Positions 21,741-44,512 of a DNA stretch of 64,000 nucleotides are shown here, piece by piece. A program made the position numbers and the translations under genes. The notes below the pieces were generated by a model. The model ran no database searches. It saw only the letters and a list, made by a program, of their open reading frames with translations, and was not told the origin of the DNA. Position 1 is the stretch's first letter. Each line of letters begins with the position of its first letter. The stretch comes from an uncultured Eubacteriales bacterium (lineage in GTDB: Bacteria; Bacillota; Clostridia; Oscillospirales; Oscillospiraceae): the NCBI GenBank assembly GCA_900547405.1, contig URGL01000002.1, positions 16,563 through 80,562 of the forward strand, given 5' to 3'.

Positions 21741-23294
21741 TCAATCCATATAATACATATCCAAAGCGTCCCGCATCTTGTAGTAGTTGGGGAGCTTCCG
21801 CCAACCGTAGCCGATGGCATCGGTGCCGATACCCACCACATGGGTGTTGGGCAGAGCCTGTGTCCACTCGTAGACAACGCCGTTGCCACGCTCCATGCAC
21901 CAGAGATTTTTCAGCCAGGTCATTTTCTTGACAGGCTCCGGATCGGCAAAGGTGCGGCTCAGGTTCACATCCTCCAGGGCGGTACAGCCCAGCAGAGGCT
22001 CGTAGGACTCAATGGCACACCAGCTCAGCTCCAGCCATATCAGCTCCTTGCAATTGCTGATAGGTGTCAGGTCCCGGACATCGGTATCCGCCAAAATCAG
22101 GTACTTCAGGTGAGGCATATACGCCACAAAGTCGATATTGCGCACCCGGGAGTGGCCGATGTCAATGGCGATCATATCCTCGCAGTACTTCAGATCCACG
22201 GCGTTCCAGTCCCGGAAATAGCCGTCGCCCTGGGTCAGGGGCATAAATTTCGTATCATCCGTCCGTGCCTTGCAGATGGAGCCTAAGTACACCGTCCAGA
22301 CCACCTTGTATTCCGCCCGCTTTTCTTCCCGGAAGGCGGCCAGAGTCTCGTTGTCCAGGCCGCAGTCGGTCAGGTTCAGCTTGGTAATATTGGGGAAGCA
22401 GGAGGCATAGCGTGCCGCCTCTTCGGTGCTCGTGAGCTTCAGTCCCGTCAGGTCCACCTCTTCCGCGGTTTCAGGCACGATACGGTCCCCCACCTGAATG
22501 GTCCAGCGGATGGTCACATTGGGGTAGTCCTCCCGCAGCTGACGCAGCTCCTCCCCTGTGGCCTGGGGATTGGTGATGTCCACGGTCTTCAGATTCTTCA
22601 TGGCCGGAATGACGCCGCTGAGTTCCTGGGTGGTGGCATTTGTCACCGTCAGAGCAGTCGCTGCGAGATCCACCACCTGGCCGCCAATGTGCATACTGAA
22701 ATTCACATTCCAGTCCGGATGATCCGTTTGGAGCTGCAGCAGCAGCACATAGTCATAACACTTTTGGGCGTTGACGGTGTGAAGCTTGGGCAGATACGCC
22801 ATCGCGTCCACATCCTCCTGAGTCAGCTTCGTCACCTTTACCGTGGCCGCGGACTGGTCGTAGGTCCGGCCGTCGATCTGCACGTGATAATTCACCTGGC
22901 AGCTGGGCTTGCGCCGGACCACCTCCATGAGCTGAGGATAATCCTGGCAGTCCTGGGCCTGGAGCACCTCCAGCTGGGGAAAGTAATCCAAAACCTCCAC
23001 ATCCTCATCCGTCAGGGTTTCCACGGTAAGCTCCGAGGTAAAACTGGGGTATTTCTCCCCCTGGAAGGGAACATTCCACAGGATGGTACATCCGGGAAGT
23101 TTTTTCTTCAGCGTATCGTAGGCAGAGCAGGTCACCTCCCGCTCCCGCAGGTCCAACGCGGATTCGTTCCGCTTGTACAGGTGCCCCTCTACAACAACAA
23201 ATCGCTCCAGGGTAAAAAACGCGCCTGCCGCCACTGCCAGCATCAGGATCACCGCAATGACGATTGCGACCCACTTTGCTACGGCATTTTTCAT
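21741..23294 (-). CDS. membrane-anchored leucine-rich-repeat (LRR) domain protein
   Basis: 517 aa; N-terminal TM anchor then repeated LxxLxLxxNxI/L units (LEVLQAQDCQ, LHTVNAQKC, LKTVDITN, ITKLNLTDCGL, LKYLILADTDVRDL). Confidence 0.6.
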   Translation of the reverse strand: MKNAVAKWVAIVIAVILMLAVAAGAFFTLERFVVVEGHLYKRNESALDLREREVTCSAYDTLKKKLPGCTILWNVPFQGEKYPSFTSELTVETLTDEDVEVLDYFPQLEVLQAQDCQDYPQLMEVVRRKPSCQVNYHVQIDGRTYDQSAATVKVTKLTQEDVDAMAYLPKLHTVNAQKCYDYVLLLQLQTDHPDWNVNFSMHIGGQVVDLAATALTVTNATTQELSGVIPAMKNLKTVDITNPQATGEELRQLREDYPNVTIRWTIQVGDRIVPETAEEVDLTGLKLTSTEEAARYASCFPNITKLNLTDCGLDNETLAAFREEKRAEYKVVWTVYLGSICKARTDDTKFMPLTQGDGYFRDWNAVDLKYCEDMIAIDIGHSRVRNIDFVAYMPHLKYLILADTDVRDLTPISNCKELIWLELSWCAIESYEPLLGCTALEDVNLSRTFADPEPVKKMTWLKNLWCMERGNGVVYEWTQALPNTHVVGIGTDAIGYGWRKLPNYYKMRDALDMYYMD

Positions 23295-23397
23295 AGCATA
23301 TGCTCCTTATGTGTGTTTCCGAAGAAAACCGAAATTTTCTTCCATATTTTCTCTCTTTGTATTATGCGCAAAATGGAAGCATATGTCAAGGACTTTT

Positions 23398-24192
23398 TCA
23401 CTTTTCAAAGGTTTTGGGAATGGTAATGGTCAAAACAATTTGGTTTTCCGTCTCCCGTCGCTCCGATACCGCCGGAATGCCGGAGCGCTGGATCTTTGCA
23501 AGGGAATCCGTCAGACTGTTGAGAAAATTTCCCAGGTTGGTCTGCCGTTTTCTGGGCGTTTTTCGGGACAGCAGGGTTTCAATATAGCGCTCAGCAGCTG
23601 CCACGCTGAGTCCGTTCTTCTCGATATAGCCGATGGCCTCCCGCTTTTCTGCCTCTCCCGTCAGCTTCAGCAGAGCCCGGGCATGGCGCTCCGTAAGCCC
23701 CGCCTCCCGGATGGCATCCAGGATCTTCTCCCCGTGGCGCAGGAGCCGCAGCTTGTTGGCCACGCTGCTTTGGCTCTTTCCCAGGAGCCTTGCCGTCTGC
23801 TCCTGGGAAAGATTCTGGGCCCGCATCAGCGCGGCAATGCCCATAGCCTCCTCCACAAAGTCCAGATCCTGCCGTTGGAGATTTTCTACCAGGGCGGCAA
23901 TACCGGACTCCTGGTCGTCCATTTGCAGCAGGATGCAGGGCACTTCCGTCAGTCCCGCCTGGGCCGCCGCCCGAAGCCGCCGCTCCCCGGCGATGAGCTC
24001 ATAGCCCCCTGCTGTACGCCGAACGGACAGCGGCTGCAGCACCCCATGGGCCCGGATGGATTCTGCCAGCTCGTCCAGGGCTTCCGGCCGAAACACCCGC
24101 CTCGGCTGCATGGGATTGGGCCGGATAGCCCGGATGGGCAGAAAGACGACCCTCCCGGTCTCCATATAGGTCTTCAGCTTCTGGCACTGCAT
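23398..24192 (-). CDS. ParB/Spo0J/Noc-like protein (ParB N-terminal nuclease-like plus HTH domain)
   Basis: 264 aa; LPIRAIRPNPMQPRRVF, GGYELIAGERRLRAA and HTH QEQTARLLGKSQSSVANKLRLL. GGGGGAGGAAGGG SD. No ParA adjacent. Confidence 0.75.
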   Translation of the reverse strand: MQCQKLKTYMETGRVVFLPIRAIRPNPMQPRRVFRPEALDELAESIRAHGVLQPLSVRRTAGGYELIAGERRLRAAAQAGLTEVPCILLQMDDQESGIAALVENLQRQDLDFVEEAMGIAALMRAQNLSQEQTARLLGKSQSSVANKLRLLRHGEKILDAIREAGLTERHARALLKLTGEAEKREAIGYIEKNGLSVAAAERYIETLLSRKTPRKRQTNLGNFLNSLTDSLAKIQRSGIPAVSERRETENQIVLTITIPKTFEK

Positions 24193-24367
24193 TGCCCTTC
24201 CTCCCCCGGTAAAAGATACCTCCTATTCTAGCCCCTCGGAATGCGGAAATCCCACGAAACCGTCCCCGGATCCGGTGCTTTTTCCGCAGGACCGGCATCA
24301 CCCAAAAAAATTCAGGAAATCCTAAAATTTTCCTTTACTTTTTCAATCAATACGTGTATACTGATTG

Positions 24368-24486
24368 GCGAACAGAGTAGGAGACCCTGCGTGAAGTGCT
24401 GTCAAGATGGGGAGTTGTGTGACAGACGAAGGACTTGTGTCCGCGATGGGATCTCCGCACCCGCTGCGCCATAATCGAGGGTCTGC
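24368..24486 (+). ncRNA. THF (tetrahydrofolate) riboswitch
   Basis: cAGAGUAGGagaccCuGCGUgAAGUG...GGGGA...CGAAGGA...CCGCGAUGGGAUcUCCGC...CGCCAUAAU matches the THF-I riboswitch consensus; precedes a folate-type ECF S-component. Confidence 0.75.
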
Positions 24487-24556
24487 CTTCTTTTATGTGG
24501 CAACGATACTCCGTTAGGTGACGTATGCGCCTTGCGGTTTACTCGGCGTACTTTCT

Positions 24557-24590
24557 CCCCGGCGGTATTTTCCGCTGGGGTTTTTGTTTG
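24557..24590 (+). terminator. THF riboswitch expression-platform terminator
   Basis: ccccggcgg-uauuu-uccgcugggg stem followed by UUUUUGUUUG. Confidence 0.5.
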
Positions 24591-24637
24591 CCGGGTCCCT
24601 GGTCTCGTCACCGCTACAACAAAGGAGGTACTTTTTC

Positions 24638-25705
24638 ATGTCCAACAACCAAAAATCCACCGCACTCTATCCCCACCCCTTTTCCCGGGCCTATTGGCGT
24701 GACGCCGCCGCGGAGCTGAAGGACACCCACATGCTGGTCTTTGCCGCCCTGATGATCGCCCTGCGGCTGGTGATGAAGCAGGTCTCCATTCCCATCACAC
24801 CGACTCTGCGGATCAACACCGGCTACTTTGTCAATGCCTTAGGCGCAATGGTCTTCGGCCCCGTCATGGCTGCCATCTGCGCCGCGATCACGGACGTGCT
24901 GGGCTACATCATCCGTCCCAACGGTGTCTACTTTCTCCCCTTCATTCTGACAGAGATCGGCGGCTCCGTGATCTTCGCCCTGTTTCTCTACCGAGCCAAG
25001 GTGACCACCACCCGGGTGGTTTTGAGCCGGTTTACCATCAATCTGCTCATCAATGTCGTGCTGCAAACGCCAATTTATATGGCCTACTATGCTCTCTACA
25101 TGGGCGGCAAGCAGTATACGCTCCTGATTGCCATGCCCGGCATTGTCAAGAACATCCTCATGTTCCCCATTGAGAGCTTCCTGCTGGCCCTATTTCTCTC
25201 TATCATGCTGCCCATCACCGCCCGTCTGGGCCTCACCTATTCCGGCAGCGACGCCAAAAAAGAGCTGAAATTCACCGGCAAGCAGGTTGCCACCCTGGCG
25301 GTGCTCCTGGTTGTGGGCATCGGCTGCGTCTTCGGCTACCTGAGCTACTACTACAAAACCACTTCTCTTTCCGCCAAATATTCCACCGAGGAGCGGTATG
25401 AGAAGAACACCCAGATGACTCAGGTCCTGGCCCACAGCGAAAACCTGGACCCGGAGACCGCCGTCACCATTGTGGAGAGCGCCTACAAGAAATTCCTTTC
25501 CAACGAAATCACCTATACCGTAGCCGTCTACACCCTGGAAGACGGCAAACTGGAGGGTTACGATAAGGATCTGGAAACCATCCGAGGCCTGTCCAAATCT
25601 AAGGCCAAAGCCGTGGCCAAAGACGGGGTCATGTCCTACCAGGAAACTGCCACGATTGTCCTCGACGATAAGACCGGCCAGGTGCTGTCCCTGACGGTAA
25701 AATAA
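24638..25705 (+). CDS. folT: ECF transporter S component, folate family (FolT-like) with long C-terminal extracytoplasmic extension
   Basis: 355 aa; N-terminal ~200 aa is a typical 5-6 TM ECF S-component; C-terminal ~150 aa is soluble-looking. AAGGAGGT SD; THF riboswitch upstream. Confidence 0.65.
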   Translation: MSNNQKSTALYPHPFSRAYWRDAAAELKDTHMLVFAALMIALRLVMKQVSIPITPTLRINTGYFVNALGAMVFGPVMAAICAAITDVLGYIIRPNGVYFLPFILTEIGGSVIFALFLYRAKVTTTRVVLSRFTINLLINVVLQTPIYMAYYALYMGGKQYTLLIAMPGIVKNILMFPIESFLLALFLSIMLPITARLGLTYSGSDAKKELKFTGKQVATLAVLLVVGIGCVFGYLSYYYKTTSLSAKYSTEERYEKNTQMTQVLAHSENLDPETAVTIVESAYKKFLSNEITYTVAVYTLEDGKLEGYDKDLETIRGLSKSKAKAVAKDGVMSYQETATIVLDDKTGQVLSLTVK

Positions 25706-34418: not shown

Positions 34419-35891
34419 ATGAAAAAGCTCTCCTTCCGTCTTCTGGCCGAAACCGTAAAGACAATGCGCAAGGAAAAGGGGCTGACCCAGATCGATCTGG
34501 CGAAACTCACCGGCATCAATCGCTCTATGATCGGCCAGCTGGAAAATATGACCTTCAAGCCCTCCATTGAGCAGCTGGAGGCTCTGGCAGAGGCTCTGGA
34601 CTTTGACATTACCAATCTGTATGTGGACGATGCCAAATCCACCCCCAAGGCCGCCCCCGCCAAGCGATACAAGGTGGCCGTGGCCGGTACGGGCTATGTG
34701 GGTCTGTCCATCGCCACCTTGCTGAGCCAGCACAACCACGTCACCGCCGTGGACATTATCCCGGAAAAGGTGGACCTCATCAATAAGCGCAAATCCCCCA
34801 TTCAGGACGAGTACATCGAAAAGTACCTGGCGGAAAAGGACCTGGATCTGACCGCCACGCTGGATGGGGAATCCGCCTACCGGGACGCGGACTTTGTGGT
34901 CATTGCCGCCCCCACCAACTACGACAGCAAGAAGAACTACTTTGACACCTCCGCCGTGGAGGCCGTCATCGAGCTGGTGCTGAAGGTGAACCCCAATGCC
35001 ACCATGGTCATCAAGTCCACCATTCCTGTTGGCTACACTGCCTCCGTCCGGGAGAAATATGGCACCGCCAACATTCTCTTCAGCCCGGAGTTCCTGCGGG
35101 AGAGCAAGGCCCTGTACGACAACCTCTACCCCAGCCGGATCATTGTCTCCTGCGATGCTGAGAGCCGGGAAAAGGCTGAGATTTTCGCTTCCTTGCTGCA
35201 GCAAGGTGCCATCAAAGAGGATATCCCCACCCTGTTCATGGGCTTTACCGAGGCCGAGGCCGTAAAGCTCTTTGCCAACACCTATCTGGCCCTGCGGGTC
35301 AGCTACTTCAACGAGCTGGACACCTATGCCGAGACCAAGGGGCTATGCACCAAGGACATCATCGACGGCGTATGCCTGGACCCCCGGATCGGCACCCACT
35401 ACAATAACCCCAGCTTCGGTTACGGCGGCTACTGCCTGCCCAAGGACACCAAGCAGTTGCTTGCCAACTTTGAAAATGTGCCCCAGAACATGATGACCGC
35501 CATTGTGGAAAGCAACCGGACCCGAAAGGACTTCATCGCCGACCAGGTGCTGGAAATCGCCGGGGGCTATGAAGCCAACGACAGCTGGAGCGCCAGCAAG
35601 GAGGGCGAGACCGTGGTAGGCGTGTACCGGCTGACCATGAAGGCCAACTCCGACAACTTCCGTCAGAGCGCCATCCAGGGCGTTATGAAGCGCATCAAGG
35701 CCAAGGGTGCCACCGTCATCATCTATGAGCCCACCCTAAAGGACGGCGAGACCTTCTTCGGCTCCAAGGTGGTCAACGATCTGGAAAAATTCAAAAAGCA
35801 GTCCCACTGCATCATCGCCAACCGGTACGATCCCTGCCTGGACGATGTGCAGGACAAGGTCTTCACCCGGGACATCTTCAAGCGGGACTGA
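34419..35891 (+). CDS. ugd: UDP-glucose 6-dehydrogenase fused to an N-terminal XRE-type helix-turn-helix domain
   Basis: 490 aa; residues 1-70 form an XRE HTH ([23 protein letters not shown]); the remainder is full-length Ugd ([12 protein letters not shown] Rossmann, GGYCLPKD catalytic Cys). Confidence 0.85.
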
Positions 35892-39389: not shown

Positions 39390-40424
39390 TCATTTCTCCG
39401 CCAGCCGCTGCCGGATGTAGCCCAGGGAGGCGATGGTATCGATGGTCTCCTGCAAATTTAAGCGGCGGGTGTTGTTGGAGTTGAACTCCGTCAGGGTGTT
39501 CCGCTTGTCGTCGCCCTCTTTGAAGTACTTATCGTAGTTCAGCCCCCGGTTGTCGGCGGGGACCCGGTAGAAGTCCCCCATGTCGATGGCCTTGGCGCAC
39601 TCCTCGTTGGTGAGGAGGGTCTCGTACATCTTCTCGCCGTGGCGGATGCCGATGACCTTGATCTCCTCTTTCTTGCCGCCGAAGAGCTCGCAGACGGCTT
39701 CCGCCTGGGTCCGGATGGTGCAGGCGGGGGCCTTCTTGATGAGCAGGTCGCCGTTCTCGCCGTGCTCAAAGGCGAAGAGCACCAGGTCCACGGCCTCTTC
39801 CAGGGACATGATGAACCGGGTCATGTTGGGCTCGGTGACGGTGATGGGATTGCCGGATCTGATCTGGTCGATCCACAGGGGGATGACGGAGCCCCGGGAG
39901 CACATGACGTTGCCGTAGCGGGTGCAGCAGATCTTCGTCTTGCCGGACATTCTGGATTTGGCAATGGCCACCTTTTCCTCAATGGCCTTGGACATGCCCA
40001 TGGCGTTGATGGGGTAGGCGGCCTTGTCGGTGGACAGGCAGATGACGCACTCCACCCCGGCCTCGATGGCGGCGGTGAGGACATTGTCCGTGCCGATGAC
40101 GTTGGTCCGCACGGCTTCCATGGGGAAGAACTCGCAGGAGGGCACCTGCTTCAGGGCGGCGGCGTGGAAGATATAGTCCACCCCGGTCATGGCCCCCCGG
40201 ACGGATTGCAGGTCCCGGACGTCGCCAATGTAAAACTTGATTTTGTTCGCCACCTCCGGCATTCTGGCCTGGTACTCGTGGCGCATGTCGTCCTGCTTCT
40301 TCTCATCCCGGGAGAAGATGCGGATCTCGCCAATGTCCGTGGCCAGGAAGCGGTTTAAAACGGCGTTACCGAAGGAGCCGGTACCGCCGGTGATCATCAG
40401 GGTTTTGTTTTTAAAAAGAGACAT
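39390..40424 (-). CDS. fnlA: Cap5E/WbjB/FnlA-like UDP-GlcNAc 4,6-dehydratase/5,3-epimerase (CapD-like SDR)
   Basis: 344 aa from MSLFKNKTLMITGGTGSFGN (GGAGGA SD). Its RBS and first 19 codons lie inside the 75 bp direct repeat. Confidence 0.85.
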   Translation of the reverse strand: MSLFKNKTLMITGGTGSFGNAVLNRFLATDIGEIRIFSRDEKKQDDMRHEYQARMPEVANKIKFYIGDVRDLQSVRGAMTGVDYIFHAAALKQVPSCEFFPMEAVRTNVIGTDNVLTAAIEAGVECVICLSTDKAAYPINAMGMSKAIEEKVAIAKSRMSGKTKICCTRYGNVMCSRGSVIPLWIDQIRSGNPITVTEPNMTRFIMSLEEAVDLVLFAFEHGENGDLLIKKAPACTIRTQAEAVCELFGGKKEEIKVIGIRHGEKMYETLLTNEECAKAIDMGDFYRVPADNRGLNYDKYFKEGDDKRNTLTEFNSNNTRRLNLQETIDTIASLGYIRQRLAEK

Positions 40425-40440
40425 GATGTGTCCTCCATTC
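40366..40440. repeat. 75 bp direct repeat, copy 1 (RBS plus 5' end of fnlA), flanking the Abi cassette
   Basis: ttaccgaaggagccggtaccgccggtgatcatcagggttttgtttttaaaaagagacatgatgtgtcctccattc is identical to 41693-41767. Confidence 0.9.
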
Positions 40441-40537
40441 AATCATATTTTTTCTTATTGAACAAGGCAATTGTAACAAATACACTGCACAACAGTTTTT
40501 TGACAGCGATATTTGATAGAGTAGAATTTCTTTGCAC

Positions 40538-40566
40538 TTGACAATTTTGATACAATCCACTATAAT
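40538..40566 (+). promoter_or_regulatory. consensus sigma-70 promoter TTGACA-17-TATAAT driving the Abi gene
   Basis: cTTGACAattttgatacaatccacTATAATg in an AT-rich insert; then AGAGGTG SD and ATG 40653. Confidence 0.6.
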
Positions 40567-40652
40567 GTTTGCAATAGAACCCGCCACGCCTAGTCATGTT
40601 CCCATGAATGCGCAACCCGGCGGGACTTTTTGTATTTATAGAGGTGCGCAAT

Positions 40653-41558
40653 ATGTACCAGTATCCAAAAAATATCCAGAACACCGCACAGCTATTGCAA
40701 AAGTGGAGCAATGCTGGGATGCAGATCACCGCAAACGACAATGCCGAAGAAACCCTTGATCAGGTTGGGTATTATCGTCTCAAAGGCTACGCTTTTCACC
40801 TGTACGACAAATCATCCGGAAAATTTGAGACCGGTGTGACCTTTGCGAAGGTTGCAAACATTTACAGGTTTGATTCCGCGTTATCAAATCTTGTGTTCAG
40901 TTTCATTGCGCAAATTGAGGTATCGCTTCGTGCCCGGCTTGTTTCTGCGCTTTTGCTCCATGGAGATGCATTGGTTCTAAATGACCCGTCTATATTTTCA
41001 GAGAAAGACAAGTATTGGAAAAATCAGGGTACCATCGCATCTGAAATCGCACGATCAAATGATGTGTTTATAAAGCACAACTTCCGTCAATACGATGGGG
41101 CTGTCCCGCTCTGGGCCTCTGTTGAGGTAATGTCATTCGGCACGCTCTCTAAAGTGATCAAAAACCTCAAGCCTACCACTGCCGAATACAAAGCATTGGT
41201 TCAACATTACAGATTTATCGGACCGTCCGGCAAATACATTGTTCCCTCACAAAAAATGTTCACGTCGTGGATCCAGTCCGTCTCCGTAATGCGGAATATC
41301 TGTGCGCATAACAGCAGGATTTATAATAGGGCTATCAGTACCGCGCCCCAATTGACGCAATTAGATTTCGTCAATCCGCAGCCGCAATACAATGGCCTGT
41401 ATCAAATCCTTTTGGCCATGAAATACCTTCGTCCGTCAGACAATGCGTGGAATTCTTTTGTTGCAAAGCTCAATGGGTTGTTCTCGCAATACCCGGCCGT
41501 CGTTGATCTCACCCGACTAAATTTTCCGTCAGACTGGCGTGATCATTTTAAGCTTTAA
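40653..41558 (+). CDS. Abi_2-family abortive-infection protein (AbiD/AbiF-like, HEPN Rx4H motif)
   Basis: 301 aa; GYYRLKGYAF, SALLLHGDA and MRNICAHNSRIYN (R-x4-H HEPN motif) are characteristic of Abi_2/AbiD/F proteins. Low GC relative to flanks. Confidence 0.8.
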   Translation: MYQYPKNIQNTAQLLQKWSNAGMQITANDNAEETLDQVGYYRLKGYAFHLYDKSSGKFETGVTFAKVANIYRFDSALSNLVFSFIAQIEVSLRARLVSALLLHGDALVLNDPSIFSEKDKYWKNQGTIASEIARSNDVFIKHNFRQYDGAVPLWASVEVMSFGTLSKVIKNLKPTTAEYKALVQHYRFIGPSGKYIVPSQKMFTSWIQSVSVMRNICAHNSRIYNRAISTAPQLTQLDFVNPQPQYNGLYQILLAMKYLRPSDNAWNSFVAKLNGLFSQYPAVVDLTRLNFPSDWRDHFKL

Positions 41559-41654
41559 GTTCCGGAATATTTCCACCCCCTGTCACATATACTATCCATT
41601 ACAGAGCTGATCAAGCCTCTCAAAGACGCTCAAATCGGTCAGCCTTTCTGTGGC

Positions 41655-41694
41655 CGCCCCAGCAGTTCATTTCAGACTGCTGGGGCGGTTTTTA
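41655..41694 (+). terminator. intrinsic terminator of the Abi cassette
   Basis: ccgccccagcag-ttcatttcagac-tgctggggcgg then ttttt. Confidence 0.75.
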
Positions 41695-41767
41695 CCGAAG
41701 GAGCCGGTACCGCCGGTGATCATCAGGGTTTTGTTTTTAAAAAGAGACATGATGTGTCCTCCATTCT
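41693..41767. repeat. 75 bp direct repeat, copy 2 (orphaned RBS plus 19 codons of fnlA, reading into cassette end)
   Basis: Identical 75-mer; encodes MSLFKNKTLMITGGTGSFG then out-of-context KNRPSSLK-stop. Confidence 0.9.
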
Positions 41768-41779
41768 TATGTTTGGCAT

Positions 41780-42328
41780 TCAAAAGACCGGCTCCAGCAG
41801 GTCCACCTTCTCGCCGCCGCGGAAGACCCGCTTGATCCGCAGGTTTGTCCGGTTTTCGCCTTTGAACTCGGCCCGGAGAATGTAGCCCGAGGGGTAGTGA
41901 AAGTCCCACTTGGTGTCGGTCAGCTTCTGCAGGCGGTTTTCCTCCGCCTTGTTGCCCTCCTGCTTTCCGGCGGCCTTCACCTCGGCGCACAGGACATTCA
42001 CGGGAGGGATACCGGCGGCCTCGTCGCCCCGCTTGCGAATGAGTATATCCAGGCCCAGGTGGGGCCGCTGTCTTGTCTTCTTCGCGGTGATGTCCACCCC
42101 CACCACCAGCCGTCCGTACTCCATGTCCACCACGTAATCCTCGATACGGCGCATCCACAGAAAGAACTGCAAATAGAAGGCGATCCGGGCAGAGACCATC
42201 AGCCGGTCAAAGGGCTGCGTCAGCAGATCCTGGTCATGGCGGTTGAACTGGGCCACCGCGTACATCATCATATAGTCATGGAGCGCCGGATTCTGGGGCA
42301 CGGGAATGGAATAATCTGGGGCTTTCAT
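41780..42328 (-). CDS. hypothetical protein, paralog 1 of a tandem pair; putative PD-(D/E)xK (restriction-endonuclease-like) fold
   Basis: 182 aa; shares with the 42508-43005 product the pattern ER..x..R.A.YL...Y.VD.EY.R...D(L/I)(L/I)I(R/H)KRG...N(V/L)(L/I)C(A/M)E(V/M)K...A.E.RL.K.TD...F.Y..G...L.IK..FR.G, compatible with E / hhhD / hhhExK nuclease motifs. Confidence 0.45.
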   Translation of the reverse strand: MKAPDYSIPVPQNPALHDYMMMYAVAQFNRHDQDLLTQPFDRLMVSARIAFYLQFFLWMRRIEDYVVDMEYGRLVVGVDITAKKTRQRPHLGLDILIRKRGDEAAGIPPVNVLCAEVKAAGKQEGNKAEENRLQKLTDTKWDFHYPSGYILRAEFKGENRTNLRIKRVFRGGEKVDLLEPVF

Positions 42329-42384
42329 GGGCGGTTGTGCTCCTTTTCATGTAGTATTTGATTCTCTTTGGGTATTATAATCGA

Positions 42385-42422
42385 AACCGCGAGAATTGGC
42401 AAGCAATTCTCGCGGGTTTTTG
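42385..42422. terminator. strong hairpin between the two paralogs
   Basis: aaaccgcgagaattg-gcaag-caattctcgcgggttttt, a perfect 13 bp stem with A/T flanks. Confidence 0.45.
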
Positions 42423-42507
42423 TACAGGAGATGGTAAATTGTTTGGGTGTCCCATCGGGCGTTTGCTGGATTCCCGGACTGGGGAAGTCAGAGAGGGGCT
42501 ATTGCGG

Positions 42508-43005
42508 TCATTGAGGGGGGATATGTACTCCATTGCGGAATATGCTTTTGATTGTCAACGCACATTGCTTCATATCCGCTACGATCATGAAGCCGGTCTT
42601 GTAGTTGAAGCCATAGTCCGGGTCGGTCATCTTCCCCAAGCGGGCTTCGTCTGCGTCACATCCATCCCGGTTGGTGCTTTTCTTCATTTCCATACAAATC
42701 AGATTCTGGTAGCCCATTTCATTGTCGTATCCGCGTTTATGAATGATTAGGTCTACTACAATCAAATCGTCATTCAAGCGCTTTGGGCTCCGGTCGTGGC
42801 CGTCCATGCCGCGATTGTACTCTACGTCCACTGTGTACCCTTCGGCCTGGTATACCGAGAGCTGCTTTTCCAGGTACATGGCGAATCTGGCGCAGATGCA
42901 GCGTTCACTGAGATTGGCTTCCAGGAGGTATCGTTCGTGGAGGTTGAAGTCGGCCAGGGCGGCTTGGACCAGGGCGTGGTGGATAGTGGGGGATAGAGTT
43001 GGCAT
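42508..43005 (-). CDS. hypothetical protein, paralog 2 of the tandem pair; putative PD-(D/E)xK fold
   Basis: 165 aa; see paralog 1. ERCICARFAMYLE / YTVDVEYNR / VVDLIIHKRG / NLICMEMKK. Confidence 0.45.
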   Translation of the reverse strand: MPTLSPTIHHALVQAALADFNLHERYLLEANLSERCICARFAMYLEKQLSVYQAEGYTVDVEYNRGMDGHDRSPKRLNDDLIVVDLIIHKRGYDNEMGYQNLICMEMKKSTNRDGCDADEARLGKMTDPDYGFNYKTGFMIVADMKQCALTIKSIFRNGVHIPPQ

Positions 43006-43117
43006 GGGGGGACCTCTTTTTTGATTATAATACCGTTCACGCTTAAAACCTCTTTATTCTTCATCTGGATCCTCTATAGTAGTGCAGACTAAATCAAAGA
43101 TTCCCTAATGTAATCTC

Positions 43118-44512
43118 TTACTGATGTGCTTTATGATGTAGTAATGAAACCCAAATATTTCTATTAATCAGCATAAGCACTCCCAATTCTACAAACTGCA
43201 TCACTTGTCCCAGCATATTATCCCAGAACATAGTCAACGCTGCCAGAACTACCATACAACAGGAGGCCCACTGCTGAACCTGCCCGAACTGAAGATGAAC
43301 ATACTTTTTCGTGTCAAAAATACGATACACAAACACCAAGGTATAGCTTATACAAGTAGCGAGTGCTGCTCCAGTAACACCTAGTATTGGAATCAGCATT
43401 GCGTTCAGGCTTACATTAGCAATTGCTCCTGTAAGTCCGGAAAATAAAAAGCCTTTGCTATCTTTGTTTACCGTATAGTAAGAAGACAAAAATGTTCCCA
43501 GTGTCAAGAACACAAATCCAACAATTAAAAATGGGGTATATCTCCACGCAGAATAGTATTCTCTTTCCACATAAAAACGAAGGAACGGTTTCATAACAGC
43601 AAGCAGTCCAACACCAGCAATGCTGGACATGGCAACAACACCACTAAATACACGACTACTGTAGGCATCCCTGTCCTCACTGTTGTTTTCGCGAATAGCA
43701 GAGTAGGACCATGCCTGGTTGAAAATCCCTGTAATGGTCTGTACCAAAGACGGAACCTTATAAGAAATAGCATAGATACCATTTGCCGCAACACCCACCA
43801 TAGCTGTCACCATGATACGGTCGGAGGAGTTCATAATCCACCACATAAAAGTGTTGGGAATTAACACCACTGAAAACTTTGCCATTTCCTTCACTAACAT
43901 TAGATTGAGATGGAATTCGCGTAACGGCTCCCAAACTTTTCCAGCAAAAATAGAATATATAATTGTTACAATATTTGCAGCAATATAGGCAATGAAATAC
44001 CCCTGAACACCTTTTTTCAGAAGTAGTAATTCAATAATATTGAAGCAGGCGATGGCCAATGCATGAATAATATTGCCAATTGAATACTGCACCAGGCGTT
44101 CCGTCCCCCTCAAATAACCCAAAAAGACTTGAGTACCAGCAAGAGAAATTGTATAGGAGTACAGATAAGCCGCATATTCAGAAATAATAGGAAATGCAGA
44201 GGCCATTGGAATTAGTATAAGCCCACCAATAAAAGACATCCCCAAGAGCATGATTCCAACACTCATAATCTCAGTAGTGTTTGCGTTCTCATCCAGCGAA
44301 AACCGCATAATTGCCTCATTAATATTCAAAATAAGAATCGGTGCCAAAACGGTACAAATGGTTGTCACCAAATCAACAACACCATATTCGGAAGTCGACA
44401 ATATGTTTGTGTACAGCGGCACTAAGAAAAACGAAATCACCTTTGTTCCGATGCTTCCCAATGCAAATATTGCTGTGTTTTTAAGCAAATATTTCGATCT
44501 ATTTTTTTCCAC
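43118..44512 (-). CDS. second Wzx-like oligosaccharide flippase (MATE/PST family)
   Basis: 464 aa, 12-14 TM, PST-family N-terminal block; low GC. Confidence 0.75.
   Translation of the reverse strand: MEKNRSKYLLKNTAIFALGSIGTKVISFFLVPLYTNILSTSEYGVVDLVTTICTVLAPILILNINEAIMRFSLDENANTTEIMSVGIMLLGMSFIGGLILIPMASAFPIISEYAAYLYSYTISLAGTQVFLGYLRGTERLVQYSIGNIIHALAIACFNIIELLLLKKGVQGYFIAYIAANIVTIIYSIFAGKVWEPLREFHLNLMLVKEMAKFSVVLIPNTFMWWIMNSSDRIMVTAMVGVAANGIYAISYKVPSLVQTITGIFNQAWSYSAIRENNSEDRDAYSSRVFSGVVAMSSIAGVGLLAVMKPFLRFYVEREYYSAWRYTPFLIVGFVFLTLGTFLSSYYTVNKDSKGFLFSGLTGAIANVSLNAMLIPILGVTGAALATCISYTLVFVYRIFDTKKYVHLQFGQVQQWASCCMVVLAALTMFWDNMLGQVMQFVELGVLMLINRNIWVSLLHHKAHQ

Follow-up and report, generated by a model that had tools for sequence, protein, structure and literature searches.

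Tandem PD-(D/E)xK-like genes related to component A of PD-λ-3 at a capsule-locus junction in an uncultured Eubacteriales bacterium

What are two small, adjacent and evidently related genes of no named family doing inside a capsular polysaccharide (CPS) locus, next to an abortive-infection (Abi) gene? The question is raised by a 64,000-nucleotide stretch of DNA from an uncultured Eubacteriales bacterium (contig URGL01000002.1), hereafter the window, in which two open reading frames (ORFs) lie in tandem on the minus strand. We refer to their products as P1 (41780..42328, 182 aa) and P2 (42508..43005, 165 aa). Upstream of P2 on the coding strand lies a Wzx-type flippase gene (43118..44512, with a Polysacc_synt match), and downstream of P1, on the opposite strand, lies an AbiD/Abi_2 gene (40608..41558). 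A sequence-only reading of the window had described both ORFs in this setting and had taken them for paralogs, possibly an uncharacterised nuclease pair that forms a defence islet with the Abi gene, or a toxin/immunity-like duplication. The ORFs, their sizes and their place between the two flanking genes are as described there, and a locus identical to the window is present in the metagenome-assembled genome GCA_052310635.1.

In our preferred explanation, to which as a whole we assign a probability of roughly one half, P1 and P2 are diverged members of a family of small (~160–180 aa), single-domain PD-(D/E)xK nucleases whose E. coli representative is protein A of the PD-λ-3 system. Each protein would cleave DNA as an endonuclease in a metal-dependent manner, probably in homo-oligomeric form as other minimal PD-(D/E)xK enzymes do, and each would serve as a stand-alone or trans-acting module against phages or mobile elements, not in polysaccharide synthesis. 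Their enzymatic activity, substrate and defence role are predicted, and their role is probably defensive. The tandem arrangement would be an accident of history, not a two-component machine.

Fold, predicted active site and kinship to PD-λ-3 protein A

The paralogy of P1 and P2 is real, since BLASTP aligned them over 161 residues with 34% identity and 57% positives at an E-value of 2e-28, far beyond chance. Each of the conserved motifs listed in the sequence-only reading (Y.VD.EY.R, D(L/I)(L/I)I(R/H)KRG, hhC.E.K, A.E.RL.K.TD, F.Y..G and L.IK..FR.G) can be seen in this alignment, and the acidic helix residue that it had pointed out is E34 in P2 but D41 in P1. Structure searches, which by the sequence-only reading would count against a nuclease if they pointed to a non-nuclease family such as sugar-modifying enzymes, returned nuclease folds and nothing else for both proteins, with the αβββαβ core of restriction-endonuclease-like proteins. 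The predicted active sites comprise D41, D68/E70, D94 and E116-x-K118 in P1, and E34, D60/E62, D85 and E106-x-K108 in P2; the PD-(D/E)xK pattern, with its acidic residue on helix 1, its D where core strand 2 begins and its (D/E)xK on core strand 3, is formed by D41, D94 and E116-V-K118 in the former and by E34, D85 and E106-M-K108 in the latter. In a 55-sequence alignment (A1), D60, E62, D85, E106 and K108 (P2 numbering) are invariant, and E34, on a long helix, is conserved in more than 90% of the sequences. Family-wide alignments show D68 to be invariant and E70, D94, E116 and K118 (P1 numbering) to be present in at least 90% of sequences, and E. coli protein A retains the equivalents of all five residues. 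A1 is the only alignment in which the acidic residue of helix 1 attains 90%; in part of the P1 clade the position is E/D or the residue is missing. Because the catalytic residues are conserved across the family, with equivalents in P1, the restriction-endonuclease-like fold proposed earlier is correct.

Hjc, the archaeal Holliday-junction resolvase named in the sequence-only reading for its fold, shares with P1 and P2 its superfamily, small size and E...D...ExK arrangement. The two proteins are not Hjc-type resolvases, however: they do not match the Hjc sequence family, and Hjc is not their closest structural likeness. Among the closest known systems are 3ijm from Spirosoma linguale, which has a restriction-endonuclease fold, and the putative nucleases of the TT1808/DUF820 (Uma2) group, although neither 3ijm nor DUF820 has itself been characterised. 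In BpuSI and DrdV the nuclease domain is embedded in large restriction-modification fusion enzymes, unlike the single-domain P1 and P2. Profile searches against PDB detected no sequence-level kinship of P1 or P2 to any of these (3ijm, TT1808/DUF820, BpuSI and DrdV); sequence and profile searches against PDB sequences gave no match at all for either protein, nor did Pfam, NCBIfam or PHROGs.

A named relative was found among defence systems. P2 matched the PADLOC profile PD-Lambda-3_A (PDLC03986) with an E-value of 3.3e-13, its residues 13–125 aligning to profile positions 20–130 of 159, and it is 39% identical to E. coli protein A over the catalytic core (E = 1e-14). The profile also recognised the relative P0084 (2e-11) and an Agrobacterium homolog (4e-18), and gave no match for P0123 or P0124 of the P1 clade. 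P1 is tied to the family through P2 and, weakly, to E. coli protein A itself (BLASTP E = 4e-4), from which it is very distant. The likeness to protein A extends to size (159 aa, compared with 165 for P2 and 182 for P1) and to shared sequence features, namely the E of the helix and three strands, VD.EYNR, D..(I/V)HKR(G) and E.KK.

PD-λ-3 was experimentally selected from E. coli ECOR28 as a three-gene locus annotated “Nuclease, HEPN,” in which protein A is RCP74640 (Vassallo et al. 2022, PMC9519451); the published interval, 22616–25374, measures 2759 nt (PMC9519451, supplementary tables). The system has been called an abortive-infection system and serves as an Abi control in a later paper (PMC13190303), and the E. 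coli operon is the only one for which protection against phage by abortive infection has been demonstrated (PMC9519451; PMC13190303). Using tblastn searches of plasmids, we located the operon beside BREX genes on the E. coli plasmid p22Q34-1, where its three genes span 2759 nt, a length equal to that of the published interval. Gene A (159 aa, PADLOC A 2e-100) comes first; gene B (267 aa) matches Pfam Hypoth_Ymh and PADLOC B (1e-179) and, more weakly, a HEPN model; and gene C (477 aa) combines Mrr_cat with DUF5074. Elsewhere in the Proteobacteria, A-like genes also adjoin HEPN/Abi genes, namely AbiV in Agrobacterium and AbiH in Rhizobium, as they adjoin Hypoth_Ymh in E. coli. Among alpha-proteobacterial plasmids, one carries the A-like gene with a gene for a 229-aa protein, AbiV and Mrr_cat, and another carries it with a gene for a 229-aa protein and AbiH. 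In these arrangements (L066 4989–8177 and L153 3956–6098) the A-like gene overlaps the start of the conserved 229-aa gene, itself without a family match, and different Abi genes come after it, which suggests a modular layout of A plus a variable Abi effector.

PADLOC already lists the family, as a component of PD-λ-3, so it is not new in kind. New are the match of P2 to protein A, the finding that the family is mostly solitary in Firmicutes, the fixation of a separate clade at the junction of a capsule locus, and the presence of two copies together with an AbiD cassette in this one locus. Like many defence systems that came from functional selection, PD-λ-3 is of unknown mechanism; its smallest component proves to come from a large family, and our results point to component A as a self-sufficient module. 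With 165 residues, four of them obvious catalytic ones, P2 offers a simple test system.

Distribution of the P2 family and the P1 clade

P2 belongs to a widespread family of PD-λ-3_A-like proteins. A large protein collection contains at least 160 homologs, none of them named and none with a Pfam domain; phage records yielded a single homolog. Among GTDB species representatives we found 49 P2-family loci, mostly from gut or rumen Clostridia, of which 45 were usable. Neighbour clustering and a scan with the family hidden Markov model (HMM) showed exactly one copy of the P2-type gene in each of the 45. All-against-all clustering of the neighbours revealed no conserved partner gene in these loci, and the family HMM found no hidden second copies among the small neighbouring ORFs; a 182-aa neighbour in L036 and a 171-aa neighbour in L009, considered as second copies, are unrelated to the family. 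We annotated about 30 immediate neighbours of P2 relatives. They include type I HsdR (two loci), a PLD-helicase-DUF3427 enzyme, SIR2_2, DndB-like and AIPR proteins, Schlafen/AlbA_2, FRG, Fic/DOC (two loci), NOV_C and a LexA-like protein; further relatives adjoin an integrase and Gabija, and one lies between a Panacea toxin-antitoxin pair and DarTG. Most P2 relatives are outside polysaccharide loci, with some family members at the edges of other such loci (L021, and L154 at the head of the locus). We conclude that genes of the P2 family are accessory genes that occur singly in variable islands, in surroundings with a clear leaning towards defence. A few members are larger than the rest: in P0031 (285 aa) the family domain is fused with NUDIX domains (PF00293, PF14815), and P0134 (330 aa) and P0142 (313 aa) carry N-terminal extensions of ~160–175 residues.

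P1 is a divergent paralog from a small, lineage-restricted clade. A word-based search found four relatives, and an exhaustive HMMER scan of 1.84 billion proteins found 39 representatives at E ≤ 1e-3; the clade occurs in one gut Clostridia lineage only. Identity to P1 is 87% for P0122, 86% for the ortholog in L070, 61% for P0123, 59% for P0124 and 44% for P0126. All members that can be placed lie directly upstream of an fnlA/capD-like gene 94–97% identical to the window's copy, whatever serotype-specific genes lie further upstream. P1 occurs without a P2-type gene in L010–L015 and L067–L069; in L070 a second tandem pair is formed by P0127, which is only 46% identical to P2, and the P1 ortholog downstream of it. 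As a control, we inspected 80 metagenomic loci with fnlA homologs of 78–91% identity, none of which had a family member or AbiD within 5 kb. The linkage of P1 to fnlA is therefore lineage-specific, and the family does not belong to the FnlA pathway. Within its lineage P1 keeps this fixed synteny and is under purifying selection, both in line with the preferred explanation.

At the nucleotide level, the P1-clade strains become homologous to the window at about 42403–42424, at a hairpin and a promoter-like site in front of P1; the conserved block hence opens with P1, and P2 lies in the variable cassette. The hairpin (42387..42415), which coincides with this boundary of strain-variable and conserved DNA, has a perfect 12-bp stem and a 5-nt loop, or alternatively a 15-bp stem with one mismatch, and looks like a terminator on both strands. 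Its 3′ arm is overlapped by a candidate sigma-70-like promoter for P1 on the minus strand (42374..42402, TTGCCA-17-TATAAT), identified solely by 11 of 12 consensus matches, which suggests that P1 is transcribed on its own. The sequence-only reading had placed a perfect 13-bp hairpin between the two genes; a perfect hairpin is indeed there, but with 12 bp in its stem, and the true 13-bp hairpin lies downstream of P1 (41654–41666/41676–41688). A 16-nt inverted repeat (42371–42386 and 43019–43034, 94% complementary) surrounds P2, both arms being centred on the palindrome ATTATAAT, one upstream of P1 and one upstream of P2. The repeat may reflect promoter elements common to both genes or the end of a mobile element. 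In a promoter scan, the former arm contained the −10 hexamer of the promoter-like site of P1 and the latter gave no minus-strand promoter; we found no evidence of mobility.

Base composition between 36000 and 50000 forms a mosaic, with GC contents of ~60% in the fnlA block and P1, ~52% in P2, ~45% in the AbiD cassette and ~38–44% in the serotype-specific capsule genes (wzx, pyruvyl transferases and glycosyltransferases). The core genes of the source, a human-gut bacterium of Clostridia type, have about 60% GC. The GC content of third codon positions (GC3) is 0.90 for fnlA, 0.81 for P1, 0.66 for P2, 0.51 for AbiD and 0.40 for wzx. In the preferred explanation, P1 would be an old resident with host-like codon GC, fixed in its lineage, with a present role less clear than that of P2; P2 would have come with the low-GC, strain-specific capsule cassette; and AbiD would have been inserted separately. 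Given such separate origins of P1, P2 and AbiD, the capsule-locus junction would be a landing site for accessory, mostly defence-type genes.

P1 at the capsule-locus junction: a proposed defence nuclease and alternatives

Several points weigh against the proposed defence role. For the members of the family, nuclease or defence activity is predicted only, and we found no published test of whether PD-λ-3 requires protein A. In E. coli, A heads an operon with Hypoth_Ymh HEPN and Mrr_cat partners, whereas homologs of B (Hypoth_Ymh/TIGR02391 HEPN) and C (Mrr_cat) are absent from the 64-kb window, and homologs of B, C, AbiV and AbiD from the 45 Clostridia loci; a search of the rest of the window likewise revealed no HEPN, Mrr or AbiV partner. 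The window holds two family copies only, and its AbiD matches only the AbiD model in PADLOC, not PD-λ-3 B; with A-family proteins and no B or C, the locus is therefore not a PD-λ-3 system. P1 barely matches the PADLOC PD-Lambda-3_A profile (E = 0.029), and about one-quarter of the annotated neighbours of P2 relatives are ordinary metabolic genes. No recognisable defence gene occurs in P1-clade loci except the window and L009, and the slot upstream of P1 in related strains contained no known defence gene, PADLOC giving coiled-coil noise only. According to the sequence-only reading, a consistent location of homologs in CPS loci that lack defence genes would speak against a defence role; such a location is what we observe for the P1 clade, but not for the P2 family. 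Finally, catalytic residues have been lost in two P1-clade proteins, P0126 (L067 8001–8543), where IKLRK replaces IEMKK, and P0128, which carries D94N and E116Q. Both ORFs are intact and still lie upstream of fnlA, which argues that the gene is retained at this site for a reason that does not require catalysis.

These losses favour a first alternative, that P1 is a domesticated, largely non-catalytic DNA-binding protein with a role in capsule-locus biology, such as regulating or insulating the fnlA block from its first position, and that only P2 is a defence-type nuclease. Consistent with such a role are the invariable position directly upstream of an fnlA-like gene across different serotype cassettes, the start of the DNA homology block exactly at the promoter-like site and hairpin, the host-like GC3 together with a promoter-like site of its own, and a selection regime that is purifying but relaxed, with a ratio of nonsynonymous to synonymous divergence (dN/dS) of 0.25–0.39. 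We nevertheless consider domestication unlikely. P1 itself and most members of its clade keep every catalytic residue, the protein has no DNA-binding domain besides the nuclease core, and the fnlA loci of other taxa lack such a gene. Moreover, the dN of P1 is 5–15 times that of the flanking capsule genes, a pace of protein evolution unusual for a housekeeping regulator.

A more ambitious proposal, which we regard as quite unlikely, is that orphan PD-λ-3A-like nucleases constitute a minimal single-gene module, for defence or as a selfish nuclease, that is widespread in gut Clostridia, and that the P1 clade, captured at the variable/conserved junction of a capsule locus, helps to drive or police cassette exchange by cutting or binding DNA there. 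If this were true, phage defence would be linked directly to surface-polysaccharide diversification.

It is also conceivable that the genes are selfish, homing-endonuclease-like elements whose cuts near the junction of variable and conserved DNA promote recombination and with it their own spread and the exchange of capsule cassettes. P1 does sit exactly at the variable/conserved breakpoint, and its synonymous divergence (dS 0.78–1.47) exceeds that of the adjacent fnlA (0.37–0.49) in the same strain pairs, about twofold in the more distant strains, as would fit allele replacement by recombination. P2-type genes, for their part, are solitary and hop among unrelated contexts, and some family members lie at the edges of other polysaccharide loci (L021 and L154). 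We judge this reading improbable: no target-site duplication, intron or intein context, or pair of empty and filled sites was found for P1 or P2, the synteny of P1 is stable rather than mobile, and a gene carried along passively beside a recombination hot spot would be equally expected at the breakpoint.

The AbiD cassette and the question of a two-component unit

The AbiD gene (40608..41558; Pfam Abi_2 9e-47, PADLOC AbiD 6e-86) encodes a HEPN protein, is oriented convergently to P1 and belongs to a 1,251-bp cassette on the plus strand (40441..41691) that was inserted separately, with P1 on one side and the fnlA-like gene (39390..40424) on the other. The cassette is bracketed by a perfect 75-bp direct repeat. 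Copy 1 (40366..40440) forms the genuine 5′ end of the fnlA-like gene, which is intact, and copy 2 (41692..41766) duplicates its ribosome-binding site and first 19 codons; the same repeat is also found in L003. Contig L007 matches the window at 100% from 44714 to 41692 (3,023 nt) and resumes at 40440 with 99.6% identity over 447 nt, so that it lacks exactly the AbiD cassette and one repeat copy, the single copy remaining at L007 2949–3023. L007 could represent an empty site, in which case the cassette would be mobile and its duplication very long, or the two repeats could have recombined and deleted the DNA between them. In L009 the corresponding position is taken by a homologous cassette (~78% nucleotide identity) that lacks the duplication, and AbiD is absent from L007, L010, L067 and L070. 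AbiD is an independent, variably present passenger.

This result speaks against the defence unit of P1, P2 and AbiD envisaged in the sequence-only reading, and it bears on the wider proposal that P1 and P2 are the parts of a two-component system. They would then be subunits of a heterodimeric nuclease or a toxin and its immunity protein, and AbiD might join them in a PD-λ-3-like combination of nuclease and HEPN protein. Such a unit would account for the recurrence of a tandem pair in L070, for the HEPN/Abi genes beside Proteobacterial A-like genes, and for the adjacency of AbiD and P1 in two diverged strains. Because the cassettes of the window and L009 are homologous, however, that adjacency counts as one historical event, and AbiD is both convergent and missing from several related loci. 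The pairing of P1 with P2 fares no better: the terminator-like hairpin and the separate promoter-like site divide the two genes, P1 stands alone in many related strains, and the P2-type gene is single-copy in 45 of 45 species loci. Both proteins keep their catalytic residues, so neither resembles an inactive immunity partner. We therefore hold a two-component unit to be very improbable, and the earlier idea of a functional pair or toxin/immunity duplication finds no support.

That P1 and P2 are capsule biosynthesis enzymes acting in sugar modification or transfer is scarcely credible, since their position inside the CPS locus is the sole point in favour and stands against structure searches that gave only nuclease folds, the lack of any Pfam or NCBIfam carbohydrate-enzyme match, the absence of the family from the 80 related fnlA loci and the location of most relatives outside polysaccharide loci; on this point, the sequence-only reading had likewise seen no evident role in polysaccharide biosynthesis.

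On the preferred explanation of orphan, defence-type nucleases placed in tandem by history, this margin of a gut commensal's capsule cluster would hold a resident fast-evolving nuclease, an imported second copy, and an AbiD cassette in both its filled and empty states. The locus would be relevant to how phage pressure shapes capsule loci; its value is incremental, and current ideas are not overturned.

Some minor features accompany the cassette and the locus. The Rfam abiF RNA motif (RF03085) gave two plus-strand matches below its gathering score of 37, one at 40580–40625 (31.1 bits), overlapping the start of AbiD, and one at 41607–41643 (33.5 bits), just downstream of the gene. The neighbour gene is a clear AbiD, of the AbiD/AbiF (Abi_2) HEPN type known with this motif, and is not homologous to P1 or P2. 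The DNA upstream of AbiD is highly conserved between the window and L009. On the minus strand at 41654–41766, the duplicated 5′ fragment of fnlA is still open for 27 codons (MSLFKNKTLMITGGTGSFGKNRPSSLK) and runs into the 13-bp hairpin; transcripts reading through from P1 would therefore be translated into a decoy peptide and would probably end short of both AbiD and the intact fnlA. Elsewhere in the window, a plus-strand gene (34419–35891) encodes an unusual 490-aa fusion of an N-terminal Xre-type helix-turn-helix domain (HTH_3/HTH_19) and a complete UDP-glucose/GDP-mannose dehydrogenase, and this fusion is conserved in all related capsule loci (L003, L009, L010, L067 and L070).

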